NCBI GenBank assembly: GCA_964483805.1
Contig: CAZADH010000001.1
Location: forward strand, 28,724-92,723
Origin: an uncultured bacterium
GTDB lineage: Bacteria; Muiribacteriota; Ozemobacteria; Ozemobacterales; Ozemobacteraceae
Length of the DNA stretch: 64,000 bases
Reading direction: 5' to 3'
Shown here: piece by piece, positions 2,908 through 62,658 of the stretch
Layout: each line of letters starts with the position of its first letter
Numbering within the stretch: the first letter of the stretch is position 1
The notes under the pieces: model-generated
Databases searched by the model: none
What the model was told of the DNA's origin: nothing
Seen by the model: the letters and a program-made list of their open reading frames with translations, nothing else
Made by a program: the position numbers and the translations under genes

Positions 2908-4080
2908 TCACTCCTTCACGAAGACGAGGCAGACGACGTTGTTGCCGAAACCGCCGAAGTTGCAGGTGAAGCAGACCTAGGCGTCTTTGACATGGCGCTT
3001 CTTCGCTTAGCCGCGCAGTTGCAGGACGATCTCGTGGGCCTGGCCGATGCCGGTCGCGCCGACCGGATGGCCCTTGGCCTTCAGACCGCCCGAGGTGTTG
3101 ATCGGCAACTTGCCGCCCAACTTCGTGTCACCCCGTTCGAGGGCGAGGTGGCCCTCGCCCTTCTTGAAGAACCCCACCTCTTCGCTTTCGACGATCTCGA
3201 GGATCGTGAACGCGTCGTGCAGTTCGGCGACATCGACATCGGACGGCTTCAGTTTCGCCATGCCGAATGCCTTGGCGGCCGCACCGCGCACCGCGAGCAG
3301 ATCGGTGGGTTCGGTGCGGTCATGCACCACGTGCGTGTCGGTGGCCTGACCGACCCCGGCGAGGCGCACCATCGGTTTGCCGAGTTTCTTGGCGACCTCT
3401 TTGCTGGCCAGGATGACGCTGGCGCCGCCATCGGAAACGGGGCAGCAATCAAAGAACCGCAATGGTTCAGCGACGTACGGGTTGTTGGTCGGCGCGTCTT
3501 TCGAATCGAGAATACCTTCGAGTGTAATACTTTGTCGGACATGCGCAAACGGGTTGAGCAGCGCGTTTTCGTGGTTCTTCACGGCGACCATACCCAGATG
3601 GCGTTCGGTCACACCGTATTTCTTCATGTACAGGCGGGTGAACATGCCGGCAAGTGACGGCAGGGTGACGCCGTAGATCGCTTCAGCCATCGGGTGGGTG
3701 AGCGAGGCGACGAAGTCGGTCGCCTCGAGGTTGTTGACCTCGCTCATGCGCTCGGCGCCAGTCACCATGACGATGTCGTGAAGCCCGGAGGCGATCGCCA
3801 TGTAACCTTGCTTGATTGCCGACGCGCCCGAGGCCGGACCATTTTCGATGGTTTCGGCACCGGCGGGGGTCAGGCTGAGATGATCGACGAGTGCGCTTGC
3901 CAGGCCGGTCTGGTGATTGACGCGGCCGCCGCCCATATTGGCAACGTAGAGATGATCGATGGCGTTCAGTCCGGCGTCTTGAAGAGCCATGATCGACGGA
4001 TAGGCGGCGATTTCGACGAGCGGATACTCGAGGCGGGTGAACGAGGTGATGCCCACGCCCACGACATAGACGTCACGCAT
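2908..4080 (-). pseudogene. Thiolase (acetyl-CoA C-acyltransferase-like, SCP2/DUF35-associated type) interrupted by two in-frame stop codons near the C-terminus. The uninterrupted ORF is 3007..4080.
   Basis: N-terminus MRDVYVVGVGITSF, plus GHPVGATG and thiolase-like core. In the same frame, after ...QLRG comes TAA (3007-3009), then AKKRHVKDA, then TAG (2977-2979), then VCFTCNFGGFGNNVVCLVFVKE and TGA (2908-2910). The tail resembles the conserved thiolase C-terminus (KDAKVGLTHNGGG-like), which normally contains the second catalytic Cys. Confidence 0.7.
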
Positions 4081-4852
4081 GTTTGCCCTCCTTCTTCTTG
4101 CCGGCGGCTTTCTGCTGGGCATCGGCGGCGCCGACGCGCAGAGCGGTGCCGGTCGAGTCGCGGCGGGCCCGGGTGGCCGCGAGCCAGTCGGCGGGTGCAT
4201 GCGGCGGATCGTGCGGCGGCAGAATGCCGGCCATCGCCTTGGCGAGCAGGTCTTTGGGGACCGGGCGCTCGCCGACGATCAAGCTGTCGCGGGCTCTCTC
4301 GAAGAGTTCGCGGGTGAGCGCATACGAAGGCACACCACCCAGTTCATGCGACATCTCGAAGCGCTTCTCGAGTTTGTACTCGATCATCCAGCGGCGAAAA
4401 CCGATCGGCGACTCGGCGACGACCAGCACTTCTTTCTGCTTCAGGATATCGATGTGGTATTCCATTTTGGCGGCGAATGCGTGCGCACCCACGCGCAGAC
4501 CACGGCGCAGCGCCAGCGTGTGATATGACATGCCGATGTCTTTGTTGACGAGCCGGCCGTTGACGATCGCGGCCAGTTCGCCATCGATCTGGGCGACCAG
4601 AACATATTCGTCCTGGACGCGGTGTCGGTAATAACCGAGCAACTCGGCGTAAACACGGGCCGCAACGATGTCGTAATAGTCGCGCTCCATGTGCAGCAGC
4701 GGCTCGACGTGCGGCAGTAGCGATGGCATGTCATCACGCCCCACCTGGCGGATGACCATCTTCTCGCCGCTGGCCAGCGTCACCACCTTGGGTGGAAACG
4801 GCGGCATGGGACTGTCGACCGGACGTAACGCTTTCTCGAGATCAACCGACAT
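4073..4852 (-). CDS. Hypothetical protein, possibly a GNAT-fold acyltransferase, translationally coupled to the thiolase
   Basis: An AAGGAGG ribosome-binding site sits 7 nt upstream of the ATG at 4852. The stop overlaps the thiolase ATG (ATGCGTGA). Only weak GNAT-like features are visible. Confidence 0.4.
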   Translation of the reverse strand: MSVDLEKALRPVDSPMPPFPPKVVTLASGEKMVIRQVGRDDMPSLLPHVEPLLHMERDYYDIVAARVYAELLGYYRHRVQDEYVLVAQIDGELAAIVNGRLVNKDIGMSYHTLALRRGLRVGAHAFAAKMEYHIDILKQKEVLVVAESPIGFRRWMIEYKLEKRFEMSHELGGVPSYALTRELFERARDSLIVGERPVPKDLLAKAMAGILPPHDPPHAPADWLAATRARRDSTGTALRVGAADAQQKAAGKKKEGKHA

Positions 4853-49732: not shown

Positions 49733-51100
49733 CTACATCGGCCAGGCCTTGAAGATCCAGAGGTCGAAGCCCGCGTGGCCGCTCTTGATGTCGCCCTCGC
49801 CGCGCGGCGATGCGCCGCCGGTGACGACGTAGCCGCCGTCGCTGGTGGGCCACAGATCGTTGCCCACGTCGGGGTCGCGTCCGCCCAGGCAGCGTTGCCA
49901 GTGGATATCCCCGGCGGCGCCGAGGCGCACGAGCCACAGGTCAGGCCGATCGGTGTGCACGCCGCCGACGTCGCCGTTGAACGACGCCGTTTCGCCGGTC
50001 ATGATGTAGCCGCCGTCGTTCAGTTGGCGAATGCTGGTCGCGGTGTCGTCGGCCGAACCGCCGAGCGATTTTTCCCAGACCTTGCCGCCGTTGGCGTCGA
50101 GTGCGAACACCCAGGCATCACTGCCACCTTGATGTCCGGCGGTGCTGGGCGAGCGGTTGTAGCCGGCGCAGATGAAGCCGCCAGCCGCGTTCGGGTGAAC
50201 CGCGAGCACGGTGTCGTCGTCCATGCCGCCCAGATCGACGAGCCACTCGGTGGCTCCGCTTGCCGCCAGTTTCGCGACCATGCCGTTCCCCAGGCACCAC
50301 GGCGCCGGTTGGTTGCCCGGGCCGCGCGCGATGCGTCCCCCGACGACGTAGCCGCCTGCCGCGTTGTCGACGGCACAAGCCAGATCGTCGCCCTTGGTGC
50401 CGAGACACTTCTGCCACTGGATATTCAGGGCACTGTCGAGTTTGACCACCCACGCGTCGTTCTGGCCGATCAGGCCTTTGACGTCGCCGTCTGGAGAATC
50501 GGTGGTACCGACGACGATGCAGCCGCCGTCACCGGTCGCCTGCACGCCGCAGGCGATCTCGCTGTTGCCTCCGCCCAGGCATTTGCGGGCGAGCAGTGAC
50601 CCCGAACCCGACACCTTGATGACCCACGCGTCGTTACCGCCGTGGTTGCCCGACACATCGCCCTCGTTCGAGTCGGTGTAGCCGGCCACCCAGTAGGTGT
50701 CGTTGCCAACCGCAGCAATGGCCAGGGCCCGCTCGGTGCCGGTGCCGCCAAAACACTTCGACCAGACCTTCTTGCCGGTGTTGTCGTAACGGGCGACCAG
50801 AAAGTCGCCGCGTCCCCAGTAGGCACTGACGTCGCCGTCGTGGTGGTTGGTCATGTCGTGGTCGCGCGAGTTGGCGTAGCCCGCCACCATCCATTGTCCG
50901 TTCGGCGTCGGGCAGATGGCTTGGCCGACGTCGTCGCTGTCGCCACCCAGGCACGCCTGCCACGTGAAGGTCAGCGGCGCCGCCGGCACTTCATAAGCCG
51001 TGACCGGTTGGGCGACGAGAGTCAGGGTCACGATCAGGGTCAGTCTGATGACCAGCACGATGGCGCTGGACGTCGGATCGCAAGCAGGGCGTTGTCGCAT
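49733..51100 (-). CDS. Secreted SBBP-repeat beta-propeller protein
   Basis: Seven to eight repeats of the form W.K..GG...D.A..V....GY...G.T.S.DGDV..G..DAWV.KLD. Confidence 0.65.
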   Translation of the reverse strand: MRQRPACDPTSSAIVLVIRLTLIVTLTLVAQPVTAYEVPAAPLTFTWQACLGGDSDDVGQAICPTPNGQWMVAGYANSRDHDMTNHHDGDVSAYWGRGDFLVARYDNTGKKVWSKCFGGTGTERALAIAAVGNDTYWVAGYTDSNEGDVSGNHGGNDAWVIKVSGSGSLLARKCLGGGNSEIACGVQATGDGGCIVVGTTDSPDGDVKGLIGQNDAWVVKLDSALNIQWQKCLGTKGDDLACAVDNAAGGYVVGGRIARGPGNQPAPWCLGNGMVAKLAASGATEWLVDLGGMDDDTVLAVHPNAAGGFICAGYNRSPSTAGHQGGSDAWVFALDANGGKVWEKSLGGSADDTATSIRQLNDGGYIMTGETASFNGDVGGVHTDRPDLWLVRLGAAGDIHWQRCLGGRDPDVGNDLWPTSDGGYVVTGGASPRGEGDIKSGHAGFDLWIFKAWPM

Positions 51101-51245
51101 ACCGATGTTCTCCTCATGCCGAACTGGTCCGCCGGGACCATCGGGCATCATCGGCAGGATGCGCGGTTTTGTTTACCTTCGCGATTGGCTCGATTCGATA
51201 GCGCGGCACGGCGCAACGCGCACCTGTGTGTCGACGATGCGCAAA

Positions 51246-53137: not shown

Positions 53138-53283
53138 GCAGGCCTCCGGATGCGGGGATGATGCCGGTATGGTATCCGGGAGAGCTGCCGTTTGTCATCC
53201 TCTCGGCCGCTCTGGTGCCGTTGCCAACGAAACCCGGCCACGTGCCGCCGGAAAGCGGATCGGAAAGAATCTGCTATATAGGT

Positions 53284-53320
53284 TGACTTATATATAGCGA
53301 ATATAATATATAGTAAGTCA
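53284..53320. promoter_or_regulatory. AT-rich inverted repeat (TGACTTATATATA...TATATAGTAAGTCA) immediately upstream of the ArsR-family gene; candidate operator and promoter
   Basis: A near-perfect 13-14-bp dyad ending 10 nt before the ATG at 53330. It is an AT-rich island in GC-rich DNA. Confidence 0.55.
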
Positions 53321-53329
53321 TCGATATCC

Positions 53330-53662
53330 ATGAAGAAGCTGACGACACTCAAATCCGAGAATCTCGAGCACCTGGCGCAGGTGTTGAAGGCGGTGGCGCA
53401 TCCGTTGCGGTTGCGCCTGCTCGATCTGCTGTGCCGGTCCGAGCACACCGTGAACGAGCTGACCGCGCATCTGGGCATTGCTCAGGCGCTGGTGTCGCAG
53501 CAACTCAAGACGATGCGATCGGCGGGCATTCTGGCGGTTCGCCAGGACGGGGCGCGGCGCATCTACTCGCTGGCTTTGTCGCAACTGCGCCACTTGATCG
53601 AGTGCATGGCGTCGTGTCAGGACCATTGCCGGCCAGCAGTGAAATCATCCAGGAGGTCATAA
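53330..53662 (+). CDS. ArsR/SmtB-family HTH regulator, SqrR/BigR-like Cys arrangement
   Basis: Winged-helix motif HPLRLRLLDLLCRSEHTVNEL...QALVSQQLK. Cys residues in helix 2 (LLCRSE) and near the C-terminus (ECMASCQDHC). Confidence 0.7.
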   Translation: MKKLTTLKSENLEHLAQVLKAVAHPLRLRLLDLLCRSEHTVNELTAHLGIAQALVSQQLKTMRSAGILAVRQDGARRIYSLALSQLRHLIECMASCQDHCRPAVKSSRRS

Positions 53663-53663
53663 C

Positions 53664-56162
53664 ATGGAAGCTCAAACGATCGGTTCCGCGAAGTCTCTGC
53701 GCCTGGTAATCGTCGGTGGTGTGGCCGGAGGCGCGTCGGCAGCGGCGCGCGCGCGGCGACTCGATGAACACGCCGAGATCATCGTCCTCGAGGCGGGGCC
53801 GTACGTCAGTTTCGCCAACTGCGGGCTGCCCTATCATCTGGGGGGCGTGATCGAAGATCGCGACGACTTGCTGGTGCAGACGCCTGAGTCGTTGAAAGAG
53901 CGATTCAACCTCGACGTGCGGGTGCGGCACGAAGTGACGGCGATCGACGCAGCGGCAAAAAAGGTCACGGTCAAGAACCATGCCTCCGGCGCCACCGAGG
54001 CAATCACCTACGACAAGTTGATTCTCGCACCGGGAGCGGCGCCGTTCCGGCCGCCGATCAATGGCCTCGACCTGCCGAATGTCTTCAACCTCTGGACGAT
54101 TCCAGATCTGGACAATGTATTGCAATACATCAAAGCGAAGTCTCCCCGCCACGCGACGGTCATCGGCGGTGGCTTCATCGGCATCGAGGTGGCCGAGAAC
54201 CTCCGGCACAAGGGGCTGGCGGTCACGGTGGTCGAGCGTGAGAAACAGGTGATGCCGCCGATCGACAGCGAGATGGCCGAGCTGTTGCATCAGCATCTGC
54301 GCCTGCATGGTGTCGACCTCAAGCTGGGTGCGAGCGTGACCGGCATCGTCGGCACGGGCGCCCGCACTGCCGTGCAGCTCGGCAGCGAGCCTCCGCTCGA
54401 GACCGATCTGGTCATCGTGGCCATTGGCGCGCGTCCGCGCACAGAGTTGGCCAAGGGCGCGGGCTTGAAGATTGGGGAGCGGGGCGGCATTGTCGTCGAC
54501 GATCGCATGCAGACCTCGAATCCCGATATCTACGCCGTCGGCGACGCGATCGAAGTGAAGGACCGCGTGACCGGCCTGCAGACGCTGATTCCGCTGGCAG
54601 GCCCGGCGAACCGGCAGGGGCGGATCGCCGCCGATCAGGTGTTCGGGCGCGACAGTCGCTACCGCGGATCGCAGGGCACGGCAATCTGCAAGATCTTCGA
54701 TCTCGCCGTGGCCATGACCGGGGCGAGCGAGAAGACGTTGAAGCGGCTGAAGATGCCGTATCAGAAGGCGATGATTCATGCGGCCAGCCATGCGGGGTAT
54801 TACCCTGGGGCGATGCCGCTGACTGTCAAGATTGTATTTACACCTGATACGGGCAAGGTTCTTGGCGCCCAGGCGATCGGCGCTGATGGGGCCGACAAAC
54901 GGGTCGACGTGCTGGCGACGGCGATTGCCGCAGGCATGACCGTTTACGATCTCGAGCATCTCGAGTTGTGTTACGCGCCGCCGTTTGGTTCGGCGAAGGA
55001 TCCGGTCAACGTGGTCGGCATGGTGGGCGCCAACCTGCTGCGTGGCGATCACCGTGGATTCCAGACCGATGACCTGGCTACGATGGCGCTCGACAAGGCG
55101 ATGTTGCTCGACGTGCGCACGCCGACCGAGCACGAGGCCGGCCACATTCCGGGGTCGGTGCTGATCCCGGTTGATGAGTTGCGGCCGCGGATGGCCGAGT
55201 TGCCGCGCGACAGGGAAATCTTGATCTATTGCCAACAGGGTTTGCGTGGGTATGTGGCGCAACGCCAGTTGGTGCAGAAAGGTTTCATCGTTCGCAATCT
55301 CGTGGGCGGTTACAAGGCCTGGGCGATGGCGAACCAACGGTTGTCGGGGCTCGGGGCGGTTCCGGTGCCGCACACGCAAACGTTCTGCAGCTCTCCGTCG
55401 ACGTCGCCGTCAGTGCCCGATACGGCGTTCGAGCTCGACGCGTGTGGGCTGCAGTGTCCGGGGCCCTTGTTGAAGATGCGCGAGCGCCTCGACGAATTGA
55501 AAGAGGGTCAGCGCCTGCGGATCATCGCGACCGATCCCGGGTTCCCTGCCGATGTTGCCGCCTGGGCGAAGCGCGCCGGGCACCGCCTGGTGTCGATGAA
55601 CCCGGAGAAGGGGCGATACATCGCGCTCGTGGAGCGTGGTCCCGTGGCGCCGCCGGTTGACACAAACGCGGCGCTGGCCGGCCTTGCGGGCAAGAAGAGA
55701 CTGACGATGGTCGTGTTCTCGAACGACCTCGACAAGGCGATGGCGGCGATGATCATCGCGAACGGTGCAGCGGCGATGGGGCTCGAGGTGACGTTGTTCT
55801 TCACCTTCTGGGGCCTGAACATTTTGCGCAAGGAGCAGCCGCCGGCCGTCGAGAAGGGTCTCATCGACAAGATGTTCGGCGCGATGATGCCGCGTGGTCC
55901 CGAGAAGCTGTCGCTCTCGAAGATGAACATGGGCGGCATGGGCACCATGATGATGAAGCAGGTCATGGCGCAGAAGAACGTGGCGTCGCTGCCTGAGTTG
56001 ATCGCGAGCGCCCGCAAGAACAAGGTCCGCTTCGTGGCCTGCACGATGTCGATGGACGTGATGGGCCTGAAGAAAGACGAACTGGTCGACGGCGTCGAAG
56101 AGGGCGGCGTCGCCGCCTATCTCGACTCGGCCAGCGATTCGACGATCAATCTGTTCATTTGA
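53664..56162 (+). CDS. CoA-disulfide reductase-type FAD/NAD(P) disulfide oxidoreductase fused to rhodanese, TusA-like and DsrE-like domains (persulfide/polysulfide reductase-like)
   Basis: VIVGGVAGG and SFANCGLPY (CoADR active-site Cys); rhodanese CQQGLRG; TusA CGLQCPGP; C-terminal DsrE-like segment MVVFSNDLDKAMAA...FTFWG. Confidence 0.8.
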   Translation: MEAQTIGSAKSLRLVIVGGVAGGASAAARARRLDEHAEIIVLEAGPYVSFANCGLPYHLGGVIEDRDDLLVQTPESLKERFNLDVRVRHEVTAIDAAAKKVTVKNHASGATEAITYDKLILAPGAAPFRPPINGLDLPNVFNLWTIPDLDNVLQYIKAKSPRHATVIGGGFIGIEVAENLRHKGLAVTVVEREKQVMPPIDSEMAELLHQHLRLHGVDLKLGASVTGIVGTGARTAVQLGSEPPLETDLVIVAIGARPRTELAKGAGLKIGERGGIVVDDRMQTSNPDIYAVGDAIEVKDRVTGLQTLIPLAGPANRQGRIAADQVFGRDSRYRGSQGTAICKIFDLAVAMTGASEKTLKRLKMPYQKAMIHAASHAGYYPGAMPLTVKIVFTPDTGKVLGAQAIGADGADKRVDVLATAIAAGMTVYDLEHLELCYAPPFGSAKDPVNVVGMVGANLLRGDHRGFQTDDLATMALDKAMLLDVRTPTEHEAGHIPGSVLIPVDELRPRMAELPRDREILIYCQQGLRGYVAQRQLVQKGFIVRNLVGGYKAWAMANQRLSGLGAVPVPHTQTFCSSPSTSPSVPDTAFELDACGLQCPGPLLKMRERLDELKEGQRLRIIATDPGFPADVAAWAKRAGHRLVSMNPEKGRYIALVERGPVAPPVDTNAALAGLAGKKRLTMVVFSNDLDKAMAAMIIANGAAAMGLEVTLFFTFWGLNILRKEQPPAVEKGLIDKMFGAMMPRGPEKLSLSKMNMGGMGTMMMKQVMAQKNVASLPELIASARKNKVRFVACTMSMDVMGLKKDELVDGVEEGGVAAYLDSASDSTINLFI

Positions 56163-56505
56163 TTCTCGGGGCGATGGACAGCCCCATCGCCGGATCTGCG
56201 TGGAAGGGAATGCCGGCCGTCGGGCCAGTTATGCAGGCAAGAGTCCGCAGATCGTCGGTGTAGAATACGTTGTATTGTTGTCCACACGGTCCCCGTTTCG
56301 CTAACGTGAAGCGGGGGCCGTGGTGTGTGTGGCGAACATTTTTTCCCGGGGCACCCTCGACGGCGGATGTTTACAGTGATTGAGTCCGCAGTCGAGGGGG
56401 TGCACTGTCGATGGATGCCATACGCCGATTGCTCGAAGACACGCTGCTGGCCAGGAATCCGGTAGCCGGAATGGTTGCCGCGGCACCGCCCGCACAAGAG
56501 GCATC

Positions 56506-57417
56506 ATGACCCGGCGCCACGACGAGGGTTACAAGCTCCTGTTCTCGCATCCCGAAATGGTGCGCGATCTCTTGCGCGGGTTCGTGCACGAACCGTGGGT
56601 CGAGGAACTCGACTTCACCACGCTCGAAAAGGAACCGTGCAGTTTCGTTGGCGATCGGCTGCGCGAACGGCGCGACGATCTCATCTGGCGGGTGCGTTGG
56701 CAGGGCAACTGGCTCTACGTCTATATCTTGCTCGAGTTTCAATCGAAGGTCGATCCGTACATGGCGCTGCGCATGATGTCGTATGTGTCGTCTCTGTGGC
56801 TCGACCTGCACGCCCGCAGGCGACTTCATCCCGATGGCTCGCTGCCGCCGGTGCTACCCGTCGTCTTATACAACGGACGCAAACACTGGACCGCGCCGGT
56901 CGAGGTTGCCGACCTTGTTGCGACGATGCCGGTGGGCCTCGATCGATTTCGTCCGCGCCTGACTCACCTGGTGATCGATGAGTTGCGCTGTGCCGAGAGC
57001 GACCTGCAGCCGGTGCGCAATCTGGTGGCGGTGTTGTTTCAGCTCGAGCACGGCCGCGACGAGGACACGCTGGTTCAGTTGATGCGGAACCTGCTTGTGT
57101 GGTTACATAGTGATGAACAACGAAGTCTGCGCAGATCATTCGCCGTCTGGATCCGCCGCGTGTTGCTGAACACCGATGTTGTCGGGCGGGTTGCGGTGTC
57201 GCAGGAAATCGGTGAACTGTCGGAGGCCACCGTCATGTTGGAAGAAAACATCAGATACATTATTGCCCGGCGCAAGGCCGAGGCGCGTGCCGAGGGCCGC
57301 ACCGAGGCCCTGCGCGCGACTGCACGGCGCATGCAGGGACTTGGCGTATCGGTGGCCGAGATTGCGAAGTTTCTCGGGATCACCGAAGACGCGGTGCGCG
57401 GCCTGCTGGAGTCGTGA
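56506..57417 (+). CDS. Rpn-family recombination-promoting nuclease/putative transposase (PD-(D/E)XK, YhgA-like)
   Basis: DDLIWRVRWQGNWLYVYILLEFQSKVD is typical of the Rpn/Transposase_31 family. Confidence 0.7.
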   Translation: MTRRHDEGYKLLFSHPEMVRDLLRGFVHEPWVEELDFTTLEKEPCSFVGDRLRERRDDLIWRVRWQGNWLYVYILLEFQSKVDPYMALRMMSYVSSLWLDLHARRRLHPDGSLPPVLPVVLYNGRKHWTAPVEVADLVATMPVGLDRFRPRLTHLVIDELRCAESDLQPVRNLVAVLFQLEHGRDEDTLVQLMRNLLVWLHSDEQRSLRRSFAVWIRRVLLNTDVVGRVAVSQEIGELSEATVMLEENIRYIIARRKAEARAEGRTEALRATARRMQGLGVSVAEIAKFLGITEDAVRGLLES

Positions 57418-57537: not shown

Positions 57538-58206
57538 TCAGTCGACGTTGGCCGTCACCAGGATGACCGTGATCTGGTCACGCGCTTCGCCCTCGGCGAA
57601 GCGGACCAGCACCGGATCGATGTCGACGGCGCCAACCTGCGTGCCGCCAGGCAACTTGTAATCGAGGGTGGCATGCAGCCGATGCAGGCTGAGGCGGTCG
57701 CGCTCGGTGGTTAGATAGCGGGCCAGCACCTTGCGGCCTTCGGTGGTCCACTTGGTGCCGTGTTGCGAGATCGTGACCAGATCGAGAATCTCTTTTTTGG
57801 TGGTGGTCATGAGCGCCGTGTCGTTGACGTGGCGACCGTTGGCCTCATACTCATTGATGATGACCTGGCGAATGACCTGGGCAAGGGTCAGGTCGAGATC
57901 TTTCTCTTTGTCGGCGCGGACCGGGAACACTTCACGGCTCTGGCCGTCGACGGTCTGAAAGTAGGCGACCTGATACGTCACGCTGTGCTCGAAACCGGCA
58001 GGAGCAGCAACCGGAACCAGTTCGATGCGATCGAACGCGGCGACCGGAGCGCGGTCGGGTGTGGCCTGTGCGGCAGCAGCCATCTCGGCGAGAACCGCTT
58101 CGCCTGGCGCCACGGTTGCGGGCGCACCCACCACCGGACCCACCAAAAGAACAACGATGAAGGCAAAAACAGCAATACAACGAGAATACGAGAACACCAT
58201 GATCAA
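57538..58206 (-). CDS. Hypothetical secreted protein
   Basis: Signal peptide; no recognisable family. Confidence 0.4.
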   Translation of the reverse strand: MIMVFSYSRCIAVFAFIVVLLVGPVVGAPATVAPGEAVLAEMAAAAQATPDRAPVAAFDRIELVPVAAPAGFEHSVTYQVAYFQTVDGQSREVFPVRADKEKDLDLTLAQVIRQVIINEYEANGRHVNDTALMTTTKKEILDLVTISQHGTKWTTEGRKVLARYLTTERDRLSLHRLHATLDYKLPGGTQVGAVDIDPVLVRFAEGEARDQITVILVTANVD

Positions 58207-58448: not shown

Positions 58449-60149
58449 TTAATGCGCAGGAGTCGTCGTCGTGTAGAGATTGCCGATCGGGCGCAAACGG
58501 GCAAACCACGTCCCTTGCCTGAAGAACGCAACCTCGAGAACGGCTCCGCCGGCCGGTGGCCGCGCTTGATCGAAGAGAAAATTACCCAGCGACCAGGCAC
58601 AATTGGCGCGGTTGAGCAGGTCGAAGCTGCTCGCGACGTGCGGGTGGCAGCCGATGATCAAGGTGAAGCCCTGGGTCTCGAGCCATGACGCGACCTCACG
58701 TTGGCGGGGCGTGGGGGTGCACTGCCACTCGCGCCCCCAGTGCACGAATGCGAACGCCGGTTTGCCTGCATGAGGGAGCGGCAGATCGGCGACCGCCGGA
58801 GCGGACAGCAGTTGCACGATGCGCGGGTCGTTGTTGTCGAGGTCGGTCAGGGCGGTCAGCGTGAACGACCCGAGATCGACGGTCTGGAGATTGCCGACAA
58901 CGGTGAAGCGATTGTCATGCAATGTGTTGCACATTTCTCGATACCGGCGTGCACCGAAATCCCGACCGTGGTTGTTGGCCGTGATGACCACGCGCGCACC
59001 CAGGGCCCGCAACCACGACTGCGCGAAGAGCGGATCCATGGCAAGTGGGATCGGGGTCCGCGTGGGGTCGTCGGGATTTGCGAAGACCCCCTCGAGGTTG
59101 ACCGCGAGCGTTGCCGAACCCACCAGGTCACGGGCCGCTCGCAACGTGGCCGGCCCATGGTGCGGATTGGCGAGACGCGGCACCATGAAGCGTCCGAAGA
59201 AGGTATCGCCGGCGAAAGCCCAGGTGGGCGCGAGACCGGGGCGGGGAAAGCCCGGAGAATAGACGGCGGCGATGTAGCTGGTCGAACTGGCAATCGGTTC
59301 GGGGGCGTACTCCTGCGAGTTGCGATTGTCGATCACCCACGGTCGGGCACCGAAACGCTCGCGTTGCAGGCGCATCTGCAAATACATGGCGCCGAGACAG
59401 TCGCAGTGCTGCGGTTGTGACAACGAGGCGACCCGGCGCTCGTCAGCGCCGGCCAATACCTGCAGTGAGTCCTGGTCGTGTCGACGGGCGTCGAACGGCG
59501 TGAGGAAATGCGAATAATCAGTGCTTTGCACGACCAGAGTCGTGCTCGACACGAGCGGGGCAAGATATGAATACAGTGTATTCCAGTCTTCGACTCGACT
59601 CTTGTTGGCGATGGCGATGGCCAGTATCGGGGTGTTGGGCAATATCCGGGCGCAGAATGGCACGAGCGCCTGCACGGCGTGTTCGTGCGAAAACAGGCCC
59701 GACGGAGAAACCAGCGGGCAACCACGCAGTTGAGCGACGTCGCTGCCGGCAACCGGCACCGGGCCGAAACAGGTATTCAGATCGCGGTCACACACCGAGA
59801 ATAGGGAGGTGCCTCGTGAGTAATGATCGGGGCCGATGATGACGATCTTGTCGTAACGTTTTCCGCGAATGGTTGTGAAAGCAGCGGCAATGAGGTCGAC
59901 GGCCAGTAGGTGGTGCGACACGACCAACCCGGTGACCGATTCGGCAAGCGGCGCCTGGGCAGCGGTCGCGACGGCCGGGTCAAACAACGACGCGTCGGCA
60001 TACATCGGGGCAATCGGCAAGACGCCGACGTCGGTGGCCAGAGGGGCGCTCACCACCGGCAGCGCCATGATGAACAACAGCGTCAGGGCTGCAACCGAGC
60101 GCGCGGAGCTCGCATGCGCGACCAACCCGACCGTGAGTGCGGTTTTCAT
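58449..60149 (-). CDS. Fusion protein: Memo-like (AmmeMemoRadiSam system protein B family) N-domain plus CapA/PGA-type metallophosphoesterase C-domain; secreted or membrane-anchored
   Basis: Memo-like segments IVIIGPDHY, SHEHAVQALVPF, VVQSTDYSHF. CapA-like segments AFAGDTFFGR, VVITANNHGRDFG, FVHWGREW, IIGCHPHV. Confidence 0.65.
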   Translation of the reverse strand: MKTALTVGLVAHASSARSVAALTLLFIMALPVVSAPLATDVGVLPIAPMYADASLFDPAVATAAQAPLAESVTGLVVSHHLLAVDLIAAAFTTIRGKRYDKIVIIGPDHYSRGTSLFSVCDRDLNTCFGPVPVAGSDVAQLRGCPLVSPSGLFSHEHAVQALVPFCARILPNTPILAIAIANKSRVEDWNTLYSYLAPLVSSTTLVVQSTDYSHFLTPFDARRHDQDSLQVLAGADERRVASLSQPQHCDCLGAMYLQMRLQRERFGARPWVIDNRNSQEYAPEPIASSTSYIAAVYSPGFPRPGLAPTWAFAGDTFFGRFMVPRLANPHHGPATLRAARDLVGSATLAVNLEGVFANPDDPTRTPIPLAMDPLFAQSWLRALGARVVITANNHGRDFGARRYREMCNTLHDNRFTVVGNLQTVDLGSFTLTALTDLDNNDPRIVQLLSAPAVADLPLPHAGKPAFAFVHWGREWQCTPTPRQREVASWLETQGFTLIIGCHPHVASSFDLLNRANCAWSLGNFLFDQARPPAGGAVLEVAFFRQGTWFARLRPIGNLYTTTTPAH

Positions 60150-60219
60150 GGCGGCTGTCCGCAGGCCGATGCGGAACAGGTGGTTCCGAGGCGACCCGGG
60201 GTGAACAAATACAAAATAC

Positions 60220-62658
60220 TTACTGCTCGTTGACCAGAGCCTTGTAGTAATCGGGTTTTGCTGGCAGTTCCGGGGGTTGCCCGTAGACTCGCTTCTGCCA
60301 GGCGGCATCGTCGAGGCGCCGGGCGAGCGGTTCGGTGAATTCGTAGTGGTTGTAAGTGATGCCGATGGCCAGGCGGGTCTGTTTTTCGTTGCCGATCAGT
60401 GCGAGGATCACGTAGGGCTCGGCGGTTGCTTGATACAGGACCTGCGCTTTGGCGATGTCGGTGTGAATGTCGGCCACGAGTCCCGAGCGGAAATCCTCAT
60501 CGCGGTGGAACACAACATCACCATAAGGTTTCGCCATGTATGACAGTTGCATGACGCGCAATTTCTCGTGCTCGTCTTCGCTCAGCGTCGTGCCGGCGAG
60601 TTCCTTCTCGGCCAGTGACGTCAGGAAGTCGATGTCGTTCTTGAAGCGGTTGATGGTGCCATACTCCTCGAGTTCCGAGGCCATCTCAGGGAATTGCTGC
60701 AGGCCGCTGTGAAAATACGCCAACAGGCGTTGCAGTTGATACCAGAAGGCGAGGTTGGGTTCGACAAAGCCGCGCGGTACCGGGGGAATCTTCTTCTCAT
60801 CGTCGCCGCCGCCGAATTCGGCGTAGTTCTGTTTGGCGTAGAGCAGAGTGTCGTGCTTCAGTTCGGCGTAAGAACCCAGCAGTTCCTGAATCTGCTGCAA
60901 CGGATAGAGTGGGCTCTGCATGTACTGCGGATAGCCCTTGCCGAAAGTGCGCGTCAGCGTGCCGAGGGTTTTCAACCACGCGCCCGCGACGCTGACGAAC
61001 CACTCGTCGTCCTTGACGCGGGAAATCGTTGCTTCGGCGCGCAACAAGAGATCGTGGAACTTCTTCTGATCGTCAGGATTCTGCGAAACCACGGTGCGGT
61101 AGAACTGTTCCGACAGATCGCGGGCCGTGCGACTGCCGAGTGCGGCAGCGACGAACAGCGCCGTGGGTGTCGATGGCAGGGTAAACTCGGTCTTCTCCTG
61201 GCCGGCGGTGAGCCGGCCGAGGGTGAGGGCATCGAAGGTGAAACGCTGGCCGAAGACGCGAAAACCTTTGGTCTTTGCGAGCATGTCGGCCTTGGTCATG
61301 CCGGGGACCGCGTCGTCGATGAACGCATCGCTGAGAATGCGCGGGGGCGCAAGTTCACCGAGACGGGCGGTGATCGCCTTGATGAACTTGTCGTCGACCG
61401 CTGCGGTGGGAGCGAGCTCGGCACGGCCTGCCACCGACGTGACGAAGTTCCGCCAGACCGGGTAACCGATGTCGTCGGCTGGGCCGGCGAAGAACCCGGT
61501 GACACTCATGATCCGGCGAAAGGTGTTGACCAGGGGTTGCCCGTTGCGATCGGGGTTGGCCATGAGCCAGGCGACGAGCAGGGCGTCGCGAACACCGTCG
61601 GTCGTCTCGAACAACCATGTATTGCGCCCGAAATACATCATAGTGCGAAAGTATGCACGTAGGTTTGATGACTTCGTGTAGTGGCTGCGCGGCGTGAACT
61701 GGGTGTAGTCGGCTGGCCGCGGTGGGCCGTCGACGTATTGACCAAACAACGGCGAGATCTCGAGTTTCTCGGCCGCGTAGATCAGGTCCAATTCCCGCTC
61801 GATCTGCTCAGCCGTAGGGGCGTCGAAATCGCGACGCCAGGTGTCGGCGAACAGTTTTTTGGCCGTGACGGCGGTGTCGGCATGGTCTTTTTCCTCGGCG
61901 GTCTGGGCGGCGCCTTCGGGATGCCGTGGATACGACGCCACCGAGTTCTCGAGCAGGATCAGCGGCACGGTGAACTGAGCGGCCACGAGTTGCAGTCGCC
62001 CGGCCAGTGGACCGGTGGCCTTGTTCTTCGCCTCGATCGCCCGTTGGCGCATCTCGCGGGTGAAATGGAGCAGGTCGTGGCGCAGCGAGGTCTTTTCGAG
62101 TTCTTCGATGGTGTTCTCGAGGTACTTGTGGAACGCATGCAGCACGATGGCCGGAGTGACAAGCCGGGTGTTTTCAGGAAGACGCTCGCAGGGCACAGGG
62201 TTGCCGGCAATCTCATCGAACATGCCGAGCATTTCGTCCCAGGGCAGCGCCGCGTATCCCGCAAACTGGACCTGGCCTTTGAAGCGGGTGGCGCTCTTGG
62301 GCACGAGCAGAAACTTGTGCTGGTTGAGAAAGGCTATTTGCTTCTTGTCGAGTTTGAGTTTCAGATAGTCGAGCACGGCGCGTTTGTTGACCGCGCGCTC
62401 GAGCGTGCGTGCCGTGTCGGCCACGTTGGGTTCGATCCGGGGTGTCTGGGTTCGCGGGAGCGCGCCGAAGCGAGGCACCTGGCCGTCCGGCAGCGGAATG
62501 GCATCGAGGCCCGCGAGCGCCGGCGCCGGTGCGGCGCCGTTGCTGGAATCGCCTTGTTGTTCGGTGATCCACGATTCAACGGCAAAGAGGGGGCCGGGCG
62601 CAGCAATGCCGGCGGTAACGATGATGGCGACGAGCAGGGGCGTAAGAAAGCGGCGCAT
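60220..62658 (-). CDS. Large secreted hypothetical protein (about 812 aa)
   Basis: Signal peptide. Possibly a DUF3160-type family (recalled from memory); no catalytic motifs recognised. Confidence 0.4.
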   Translation of the reverse strand: MRRFLTPLLVAIIVTAGIAAPGPLFAVESWITEQQGDSSNGAAPAPALAGLDAIPLPDGQVPRFGALPRTQTPRIEPNVADTARTLERAVNKRAVLDYLKLKLDKKQIAFLNQHKFLLVPKSATRFKGQVQFAGYAALPWDEMLGMFDEIAGNPVPCERLPENTRLVTPAIVLHAFHKYLENTIEELEKTSLRHDLLHFTREMRQRAIEAKNKATGPLAGRLQLVAAQFTVPLILLENSVASYPRHPEGAAQTAEEKDHADTAVTAKKLFADTWRRDFDAPTAEQIERELDLIYAAEKLEISPLFGQYVDGPPRPADYTQFTPRSHYTKSSNLRAYFRTMMYFGRNTWLFETTDGVRDALLVAWLMANPDRNGQPLVNTFRRIMSVTGFFAGPADDIGYPVWRNFVTSVAGRAELAPTAAVDDKFIKAITARLGELAPPRILSDAFIDDAVPGMTKADMLAKTKGFRVFGQRFTFDALTLGRLTAGQEKTEFTLPSTPTALFVAAALGSRTARDLSEQFYRTVVSQNPDDQKKFHDLLLRAEATISRVKDDEWFVSVAGAWLKTLGTLTRTFGKGYPQYMQSPLYPLQQIQELLGSYAELKHDTLLYAKQNYAEFGGGDDEKKIPPVPRGFVEPNLAFWYQLQRLLAYFHSGLQQFPEMASELEEYGTINRFKNDIDFLTSLAEKELAGTTLSEDEHEKLRVMQLSYMAKPYGDVVFHRDEDFRSGLVADIHTDIAKAQVLYQATAEPYVILALIGNEKQTRLAIGITYNHYEFTEPLARRLDDAAWQKRVYGQPPELPAKPDYYKALVNEQ

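Follow-up and report, generated by a model that had tools for sequence, protein, structure and literature searches.

We analysed a 64,000-nt stretch of DNA (the window) from an uncultured bacterium of the Ozemobacteraceae (assembly GCA_964483805.1, contig CAZADH010000001.1), in which the gene for an ArsR/SmtB-family regulator lies directly upstream of a gene that fuses an Npsr/CoADR-type flavoprotein module to rhodanese, TusA and DsrE-like domains. The regulator gene ends with TAA at 53660-53662 and the fusion gene begins with the ATG at 53664, leaving a gap of 1 nt. An initial annotation of this DNA had described the adjoining pair as a candidate persulfide-sensing unit of the SqrR/BigR type. 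Every sequence feature that it named was found in place, and the observation is confirmed; its interpretation is partly supported, as set out below. The two genes and the elements that go with them are as follows.

53330-53662, + strand: open reading frame of the regulator, 110 aa, ArsR/SmtB family.
53651-53656, + strand: AGGAGG, ribosome-binding site of the fusion gene, within the 3' end of the regulator gene.
53664-56162, + strand: open reading frame of the fusion protein, 832 aa, four domains.
56317-56343, + strand: weak terminator-like hairpin with a T-run, downstream of the fusion gene.

The pair is flanked by a gene for an M15 dipeptidase, on the opposite strand, and by a YhgA-like transposase gene. 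Since these neighbours are unrelated to sulfur, the unit comprises the regulator and fusion genes alone, and the two form a self-contained two-gene operon.

The regulator matches Pfam HTH_5 (2.5e-13) and an NCBIfam ArsR/SmtB subfamily model (76.7 bits, cut-off 55). Its AlphaFold2 (AF2) model, a monomer with a pLDDT of 94.8, shows the topology α1-α2-α3-α4-β1-β2-α5, that is, the ArsR/SmtB winged-helix fold, with α2 at residues 25-36, the recognition helix at 52-64 and α5 at 85-96. When the model was compared with the PDB by Foldseek, it matched ArsR/SmtB proteins, among which sulfur sensors were not separable from metal sensors. The cysteines of the regulator are C35, in LLCRSE, and C92, C96 and C100, in ECMASCQDHC; in the model C35 stands at the end of α2, C92 and C96 lie in α5, and C100 lies just past it.

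53432-53434, + strand: codon of C35, end of α2; absent in the fusion-linked orthologues and present in the PhsA-linked subgroup.
53603-53617, + strand: codons of C92 to C96, the conserved CxxxC core motif of α5.
53627-53629, + strand: codon of C100, third Cys of CxxxCQxxC; typical of the subgroup linked to the fusion and to octahaem tetrathionate reductase (OTR).

A word-indexed homologue search retrieved only the regulator itself and one relative of 46% identity, and none of the relatives from an exhaustive search of 1.84 billion representatives exceeds 51% identity. Cys is present at the position of C92 in 113, of C96 in 96, of C35 in 41 and of C100 in 13 of the 131 best single-domain relatives; C92 and C96 are invariant in the orthologues and in alignments A1 and A2. 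The recognition helix carries S56-Q57-Q58, and Q57 is kept in 109 of the 131 relatives. In an alignment with SmtB, C92 and C96 correspond to L110 and A114. The α5 ligands of SmtB, H106 and H117, bridge the two protomers, and because L110 and A114 lie between them on the same helical face, the CxxxC motifs of two protomers may, judging from this geometry, meet at the dimer axis.

The fusion protein consists of four domains, each with a conserved Cys.

53700-55019, + strand: Npsr/CoADR-type flavoprotein module (aa 13-452), active-site C53 in SFANCGLPY.
55080-55328, + strand: rhodanese domain (aa 473-555), C523 in IYCQQGLRG.
55431-55634, + strand: TusA domain (aa 590-657), C598 in the CPGP motif.
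55692-56156, + strand: DsrE-like domain, DrsE_2 (aa 677-831), C793 in VACTMS.

Pyr_redox_2 and the dimerisation domain span residues 13-442, and all domains score far above their Pfam cut-offs. Residues 13-556 align end to end with Npsr of Shewanella (3NTA, E 9e-192), and likewise with BaCoADR-RHD of B. anthracis (3ICR, 1.8e-184) and CoAPR of E. faecalis (8A56, 2.4e-163). We compared 40 full-length fusion homologues from Planctomycetota, Clostridia, Chloroflexota, Lentisphaerota, Mycobacterium, Gordonia and others: the four cysteines are kept in 38-40 of the 40, and C53 and C523 in all of them. The protein does not reach the cut-off of the CoA-disulfide reductase equivalog TIGR03385 (508.8 vs 578.8) or that of NF007123 (401.6 vs 458), and is therefore called Npsr-like and not a CoADR. 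The fusion had been described as CoADR-rhodanese-TusA-DsrE; its four domains and the SFANCGLPY active site hold, and only the name of the flavoprotein module changes.

The pairing of regulator and fusion that the initial annotation described is conserved in the five nearest relatives of the regulator (P0003, P0005, P0006, P0007 and P0009), each of which is encoded directly upstream of the same four-domain fusion (loci L086, L088, L091, L094/96 and L097/98). Identity is 38-50% for the regulators and 61-71% for the fusions, which have about 826 aa or, where the contig is short or frameshifted, are represented by their N-terminal part. At L001, a more divergent ArsR occupies the same place beside the fusion. 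C92 and C96 are found in all five orthologues, the third Cys (CxxxCQxxC) in four, and C35 in none of them, being replaced by T or A.

No fewer than 1,505 proteins matched a family profile built from 49 CxxxC relatives with E<=1e-10, and where these are named, they are called 'ArsR family'. In all of the 12 clade members with inspectable contigs, the regulator gene lies directly upstream of, and on the same strand as, genes for the reduction of sulfur compounds. Five of the 12 precede the four-domain fusion. Another five precede a PhsA-like molybdoenzyme (PhsA/PsrA-like) and a 4Fe-4S subunit, with NrfD in one case, and here YeeE/YedE transporter genes come next in four of the five, while the contig of the fifth ends early. 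The remaining two precede a cytochrome of the octahaem tetrathionate-reductase family, which passes its NCBIfam cut-off (556.7 vs 375); one of these loci also has YeeE and a YeeE-rhodanese fusion. The sulfur-responsive role proposed at first for the regulator agrees with these contexts across the whole clade. The Cys pattern differs between contexts: CxxxC followed by a Cys four residues on is the pattern of the members linked to the fusion and of one octahaem-linked member, and C35 with CxxxC is that of the PhsA-linked members and of the other octahaem-linked one. The regulator in the window is one of two proteins with both C35 and C100 besides CxxxC, and about 45-50 representatives have CxxxC alone.

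Scans with the fusion protein gave a broader view of the genes beside it. In a genome scan, an ArsR match (phmmer) was found at 5 of 80 loci. A metagenome scan returned mostly relatives of <=56% identity, together with three new family regulators, two of them with the C92 equivalent only and one without any α5 Cys. Plasmids searched by tblastn with one family member gave no match. In Lentisphaerota and relatives (L028, L029, L031, L119, L171 and L181), an ArsR gene is found downstream of the fusion, and its product keeps only the C92 equivalent (ILNCMRKNY or ILECMRKQY), so that the regulator also exists in a single-Cys form. Elsewhere, in other phyla, the gene before the same fusion encodes either a CsoR/CstR-like repressor (PF02583; Hydrogenedentota, L004, 3693-3974) or an Rrf2 regulator with clustered cysteines (Latescibacterota, L005, 207-611); one and the same enzyme has recruited sensors of different families. 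Clade members also occur in a cultured organism, Anaeromyxobacter oryzae (L083; AP025591.1, 5778453-5786746), where two paralogous CxxxC ArsR genes (3411-3719 and 4001-4294) stand in tandem between a YeeE/YedE and rhodanese set and a set of PhsA-like, 4Fe-4S and YeeE genes. Six representatives related to the regulator (P0013, P0028, P0029, P0061, P0064 and P0133; 174-392 aa) are covalent 'dimers' of the family, with two or three ArsR domains in tandem on a single chain.

Upstream of the regulator gene lies an AT-rich island that holds both the putative promoter and three operator-like dyads.

53270-53329: AT-rich island of promoter and operator; GC content 28-30%, compared with 60-78% on either side.
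53276-53295, + strand: operator-like dyad 1, ATATAG-GTTGACTT-ATATAT, one mismatch to ATATAG-N8-CTATAT; its spacer holds the -35-like TTGACT.
53283-53288, + strand: putative -35-like hexamer TTGACT, to which TTGCCA, TTGACA or TTGCAC corresponds in position in the orthologues.
53284-53320: dyad of the initial annotation, with arms TGACTTA (53284-53290) and TAAGTCA (53314-53320) located within the dyad 1 and dyad 3 spacers.
53292-53311, + strand: operator-like dyad 2, central, ATATAG-CGAATATA-ATATAT, one mismatch.
53307-53314, + strand: putative -10-like TATATAGT (TATATA or TATAGT), 16-23 nt before the ATG.
53308-53327, + strand: operator-like dyad 3, ATATAG-TAAGTCAT-CGATAT, one mismatch; roughly mirrors dyad 1.

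The three dyads stand in tandem because TATATAG is repeated at an exact spacing of 16 bp (53275, 53291 and 53307), and three copies occurred in 0.07% of shuffles. With one mismatch or fewer, ATATAG-N8-CTATAT has these three matches in the whole 64 kb and no other, where 0.09 are expected; none of 100 shuffles reached three. To compare the clade, all 256 palindromic tetramer dyads were ranked over 16 family promoters. ATAG-N8-CTAT came out on top, being perfect in four of the 16 and within one mismatch in eight; no perfect match has a spacing other than 8, and the scores of permuted half-sites are 0-2. Among the fusion-linked promoters, five of six match. For example, the motif reads ACATAGCGATAACGCTATGT at L099, ATATAGCGAAACCGCTATGT at L081, TTATAGTAATATAACTATAT at L091 and ATATAGAATTCGTGCTATAT at L097, and in the GC-rich promoters among these it stands out. 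One family promoter differs: at L101 (1602-1664), a PhsABC-linked member, two overlapping exact ATTC-N8-GAAT boxes replace ATAG-N8-CTAT.

A palindromic operator had been proposed at 53284-53320. The dyad and the AT-rich island are there, with perfect 7-nt arms 23 nt apart; longer arms of 13/14 nt need one indel. In dinucleotide shuffles of the AT-rich 60-mer, about 10% hold at least one 7-nt inverted repeat with two or more G/C and 20% give 8-nt arms, so that this dyad alone is only weakly above chance. In addition, the outer arms TGACTTA/TAAGTCA were not found in the orthologous promoters. They were therefore rejected as the operator, and the element shared with the orthologues is ATAG-N8-CTAT. 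Placed as they are within two of the spacers, the outer arms give the region as a whole a rough mirror symmetry about dyad 2. A shared TATAGTAA word was likewise considered as a half-site and rejected; it is better explained as a -10-like element beside the ATAG half-site.

The -10-like element lies so close to the ATG that the regulator transcript would have a very short leader without a Shine-Dalgarno sequence. The orthologues repeat the layout, with -35-like and TATA-rich -10-like elements inside the dyad array. In three of them (L086, 2927-2965; L088, 181-204; L091, 3982-4003) the right half of the dyad, about 18 nt past the left half, overlaps the annotated ATG (CTATATATG or ATATATATG), which suggests that the regulator transcripts of the orthologues are leaderless.

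Among the neighbouring genes in the window, the YhgA-like open reading frame (56380-57417, + strand; Transposase_31, Rpn-type) begins about 220 nt 3' of the fusion gene, and may be a sign that the pair of genes is mobile or is located at a point of rearrangement. Two open reading frames on the - strand gave no Pfam match, one at 49733-51151 (472 aa, with repeated GG-D-W/V-type motifs) and the other at 57538-58206 (222 aa). At 58449-60308, also on the - strand, a protein of 619 aa joins a Memo-like domain to a PGA_cap (capsule synthesis) domain.

From the gene structure, the domains and their catalytic cysteines, the synteny, the Cys pattern, the operator motif and the link to sulfur reductases, we infer repression, the inducer, the chemistry of its sensing and the direction of sulfur flow. 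The regulator would be a dimeric repressor that senses through the clade-defining CxxxC of α5 (C92 and C96) and a third Cys, C100 or C35; sensing by means of cysteines is probable. With its thiols reduced, the repressor would bind the three overlapping ATAG-N8-(C/A)TAT dyads at 53276-53327, which cover its own -35/-10 region, keeping both the regulator and the fusion gene off. Sulfane sulfur, as polysulfide or organic persulfides, and possibly tetrathionate, would then modify the α5 cysteines to give a di- or polysulfide bridge, either within α5 or across the α5-α5' dimer interface, with C100 and/or C35 taking part in the oxidation or sulfuration of C92/C96. The bridge would lower the affinity for DNA, and the operon would be expressed. 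The fusion is predicted to act in the cytoplasm as an NAD(P)H-dependent persulfide/polysulfide reductase of the Npsr/CoAPR type with a CstA-like rhodanese-TusA-DsrE relay, in which the carrier cysteines would capture sulfane sulfur and pass it to the flavoprotein site for reduction to H2S. We put the probability of this model as a whole at about 55%.

The alternative nearest to the initial annotation is a true sensor of the SqrR/BigR type, in which C35 and C96 or C100 of the same protomer form a persulfide-induced tri- or tetrasulfide bridge. In the AF2 model C35 lies at the end of α2 and C96 and C100 at or just past the end of α5, all three within 2-3 residues of the SqrR/BigR positions. C35 together with CxxxC characterises a large subgroup (118 of the 118 top profile hits, 33 representatives), and BigR (84.8 bits) and SqrR (83.3 bits) are the top solved relatives of the family profile, ahead of SmtB, Rv0081, NmtR, HlyU and CzrA. 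However, the claim that the Cys arrangement is that of SqrR and BigR is not supported in detail. In HMMER alignments, with the single sequence as well as with the family profile, SqrR C41 and BigR C42 align to D32, three residues before C35, and this column has Cys in only two of the 131 relatives. SqrR C107/BigR C108 would fall near residue 98, an Asp between C96 and C100, by ungapped extension of alignments that end at residues 92-95. The most conserved Cys of the clade, C92, is without a counterpart in SqrR or BigR, and the five orthologues controlling the same fusion all have T or A in place of C35. The BigR equivalog NF040642, although it is the best specific NCBIfam model for the regulator, gives only 53.1 bits against a cut-off of 155. 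The initial annotation held that a lack of Cys conservation in orthologues would speak against its proposal; this applies to C35, and the α5 cysteines are conserved. We therefore consider a sensor of this type unlikely.

Slightly less likely again is an Fe-S cluster sensor or general redox/oxygen sensor, in which the CxxxC motifs meet at the α5-α5' interface and hold a cluster or a disulfide, so that the signal would be anoxia or the redox state and not a sulfur species. The placement of C92 and C96 on SmtB L110 and A114, on the face of the inter-protomer ligands, would suit such a site; the enzymes controlled are typical of anaerobic metabolism, and in L005 the regulator before the fusion is of the Rrf2 type. 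However, a helical CxxxC is not the usual spacing of a cluster motif, and a regulator shared by four sulfur-compound enzyme systems points to a substrate signal rather than to a global redox signal.

A sensor of metals or metalloids, with C92 and C96 plus C100 or C35 binding As(III), Sb(III) or the thiophilic Cd, Pb, Hg or Cu(I), seems improbable to us. It would resemble either the atypical ArsRs with a site in α5 or CmtR, in which a helical CxxxC and a C-terminal Cys form the metal site. The three cysteines of the regulator lie on or beside one helix face in the AF2 model, and their spacing, CxxxCxxxC, can be set beside the α5 Cys triad (S3 site) of the ArsRs in cluster 5 of the sequence similarity network (SSN), where As(III) is bound by α5 cysteines only (PMC10509353). 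In addition, As(III) induces an operon of Psr-like and rhodanese genes in P. mercurii according to a preprint, in which no regulator of the CxxxC clade was identified; caution is due here, since dithiol sensors can respond to arsenite. Against binding of metals, neither ars nor metal-efflux or metallothionein genes were found in any of the 13 contexts (the window and the 12 sampled), all of which have enzymes for sulfur compounds, and the associated molybdoenzymes score as PhsA (437-481 bits) and not as ArrA (129-167 bits). The arsenic sensor AfArsR (6J05) falls below BigR both with the protein (29.8 vs 44.3 bits) and with the profile (54.2 vs 84.8 bits), and many clade members have two Cys only.

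Least probable of all is a non-sensing autorepressor that merely sets the expression level, with structural cysteines: the best solved match of the single-sequence search, Rv0081, has no known inducer site, and some ArsR members may be without one (PMC10509353), but the near-invariance of C92 and C96 in a very divergent clade (mean column identity 35%) is hard to explain without a function.

Several points weigh against the repressor that we favour, induced by sulfane sulfur through its α5 cysteines. The inducer is deduced from the neighbouring genes only, and a CxxxC with a third Cys is also a known layout of metal sites. About one third of the CxxxC-bearing representatives have no third Cys, and some relatives keep the C92 equivalent only, implying that the sensing site is not uniform in the clade. 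In most of the 36 full-length fusion loci examined there is no ArsR beside the fusion. The operator motif comes within one mismatch in only half of the family promoters, and a scan for consensus sigma-70 promoters called none on the + strand of the island. Finally, literature on the clade, on 'TsoR' and on regulators of psr, phs and otr yielded no characterisation, and no experiment on any clade member was found in the literature searched, which omits many subscription papers.

A wider reading is that the clade is a sister of SqrR/BigR that serves many anaerobes as a substrate-responsive switch for the reduction of sulfur compounds, sensing polysulfide or tetrathionate through a CxxxC link at the α5-α5' interface. 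We offer this tentatively, as clearly less likely than the model for the operon itself. If true, it would cover Psr/Phs-type molybdoenzymes, octahaem tetrathionate reductases and Npsr-relay fusions, and the sensing topology would be new compared with the intra-protomer α2-α5 bridge. At present, one Cys layout, that of SqrR, BigR, HlyU and SoxR, defines how ArsR proteins detect reactive sulfur species through their thiols, and most work on such sensing concerns sulfide oxidation and pathogens. Another widespread layout would extend the picture to anaerobic reduction by polysulfide, thiosulfate, tetrathionate and persulfide reductases, would provide a testable regulator-operator pair for genes of unknown control, and would lend itself to comparing how the geometry of the cysteines determines which inducer is recognised. 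The fusion enzyme, for its part, is a ready system for studying the hand-off of sulfur from carrier domains to a flavoprotein reductase.

Parts of this system have known counterparts. The architecture of the fusion has already been noticed: Vigneron et al. (2021) found a 'DsrE-Npsr-TusA-rhodanese fusion' in Phycisphaeraceae and Nealsonbacteria bins, called it 'a novel gene' and proposed a role in intracellular sulfur reduction (PMC7887784). Their fusion apparently shares this architecture and likewise occurs in Planctomycetes; their report includes no regulator, operator or biochemistry. The enzymes Npsr (Shewanella loihica), BaCoADR-RHD and EfCoAPR share both active-site cysteines with the fusion, which in contrast extends further at its C-terminus, by about 275 residues that carry the TusA and DsrE domains. 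CstA of S. aureus also combines rhodanese, TusA and DsrE with carrier cysteines in one chain (PMC9918477), whereas in the window this relay is covalently joined to the flavoprotein reductase. A functional analogue of the regulator is CstR, the persulfide sensor of the CsoR family, which controls CoAPR in E. faecalis and CstA in S. aureus (PMC9405070, PMC9918477); however, CstR has the unrelated fold of the CsoR four-helix bundle, another operator and another Cys pair.

The closest comparison is with SqrR (Rhodobacter capsulatus) and BigR (Xylella/Agrobacterium), which belong to SSN cluster 4 together with HlyU, YgaV, SoxR and sHdrR. This persulfide-sensing cluster is marked by an α2/α5 Cys pair and by sulfurtransferase and sulfur-transporter genes in the neighbourhood (PMC10509353). 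Such neighbours are shared by our clade, in the window as well as in all 12 sampled members, whereas the Cys pair is not: the invariant pair of the clade is the CxxxC of α5 (C92 and C96), and the position of SqrR C41/BigR C42 is an Asp in the regulator of the window. The ArsR fold and the Ser-Gln-Gln signature of the recognition helix are also common to both. Gln57 occupies the base-contacting position at which SqrR carries Gln and metal sensors carry His (bioRxiv 10.64898/2026.05.15.721447). The SqrR box, ATTC-x8-GAAT (same preprint), has the same 4-N8-4 geometry over the promoter as the motif of the clade; the half-site, however, is ATTC in SqrR and ATAG in the clade. SqrR and BigR control oxidation genes of the SQR/PDO type, whereas the clade controls reductases of sulfur compounds. 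As a whole, the unit resembles a module for sulfur stress or sulfur reduction under the control of SqrR or CstR. The regulator is best read as a repressor switched at its thiols by sulfane or oxidised sulfur, SqrR-like in its working but outside the SqrR/BigR group, and as a member of an uncharacterised CxxxC clade with an operator half-site of its own.

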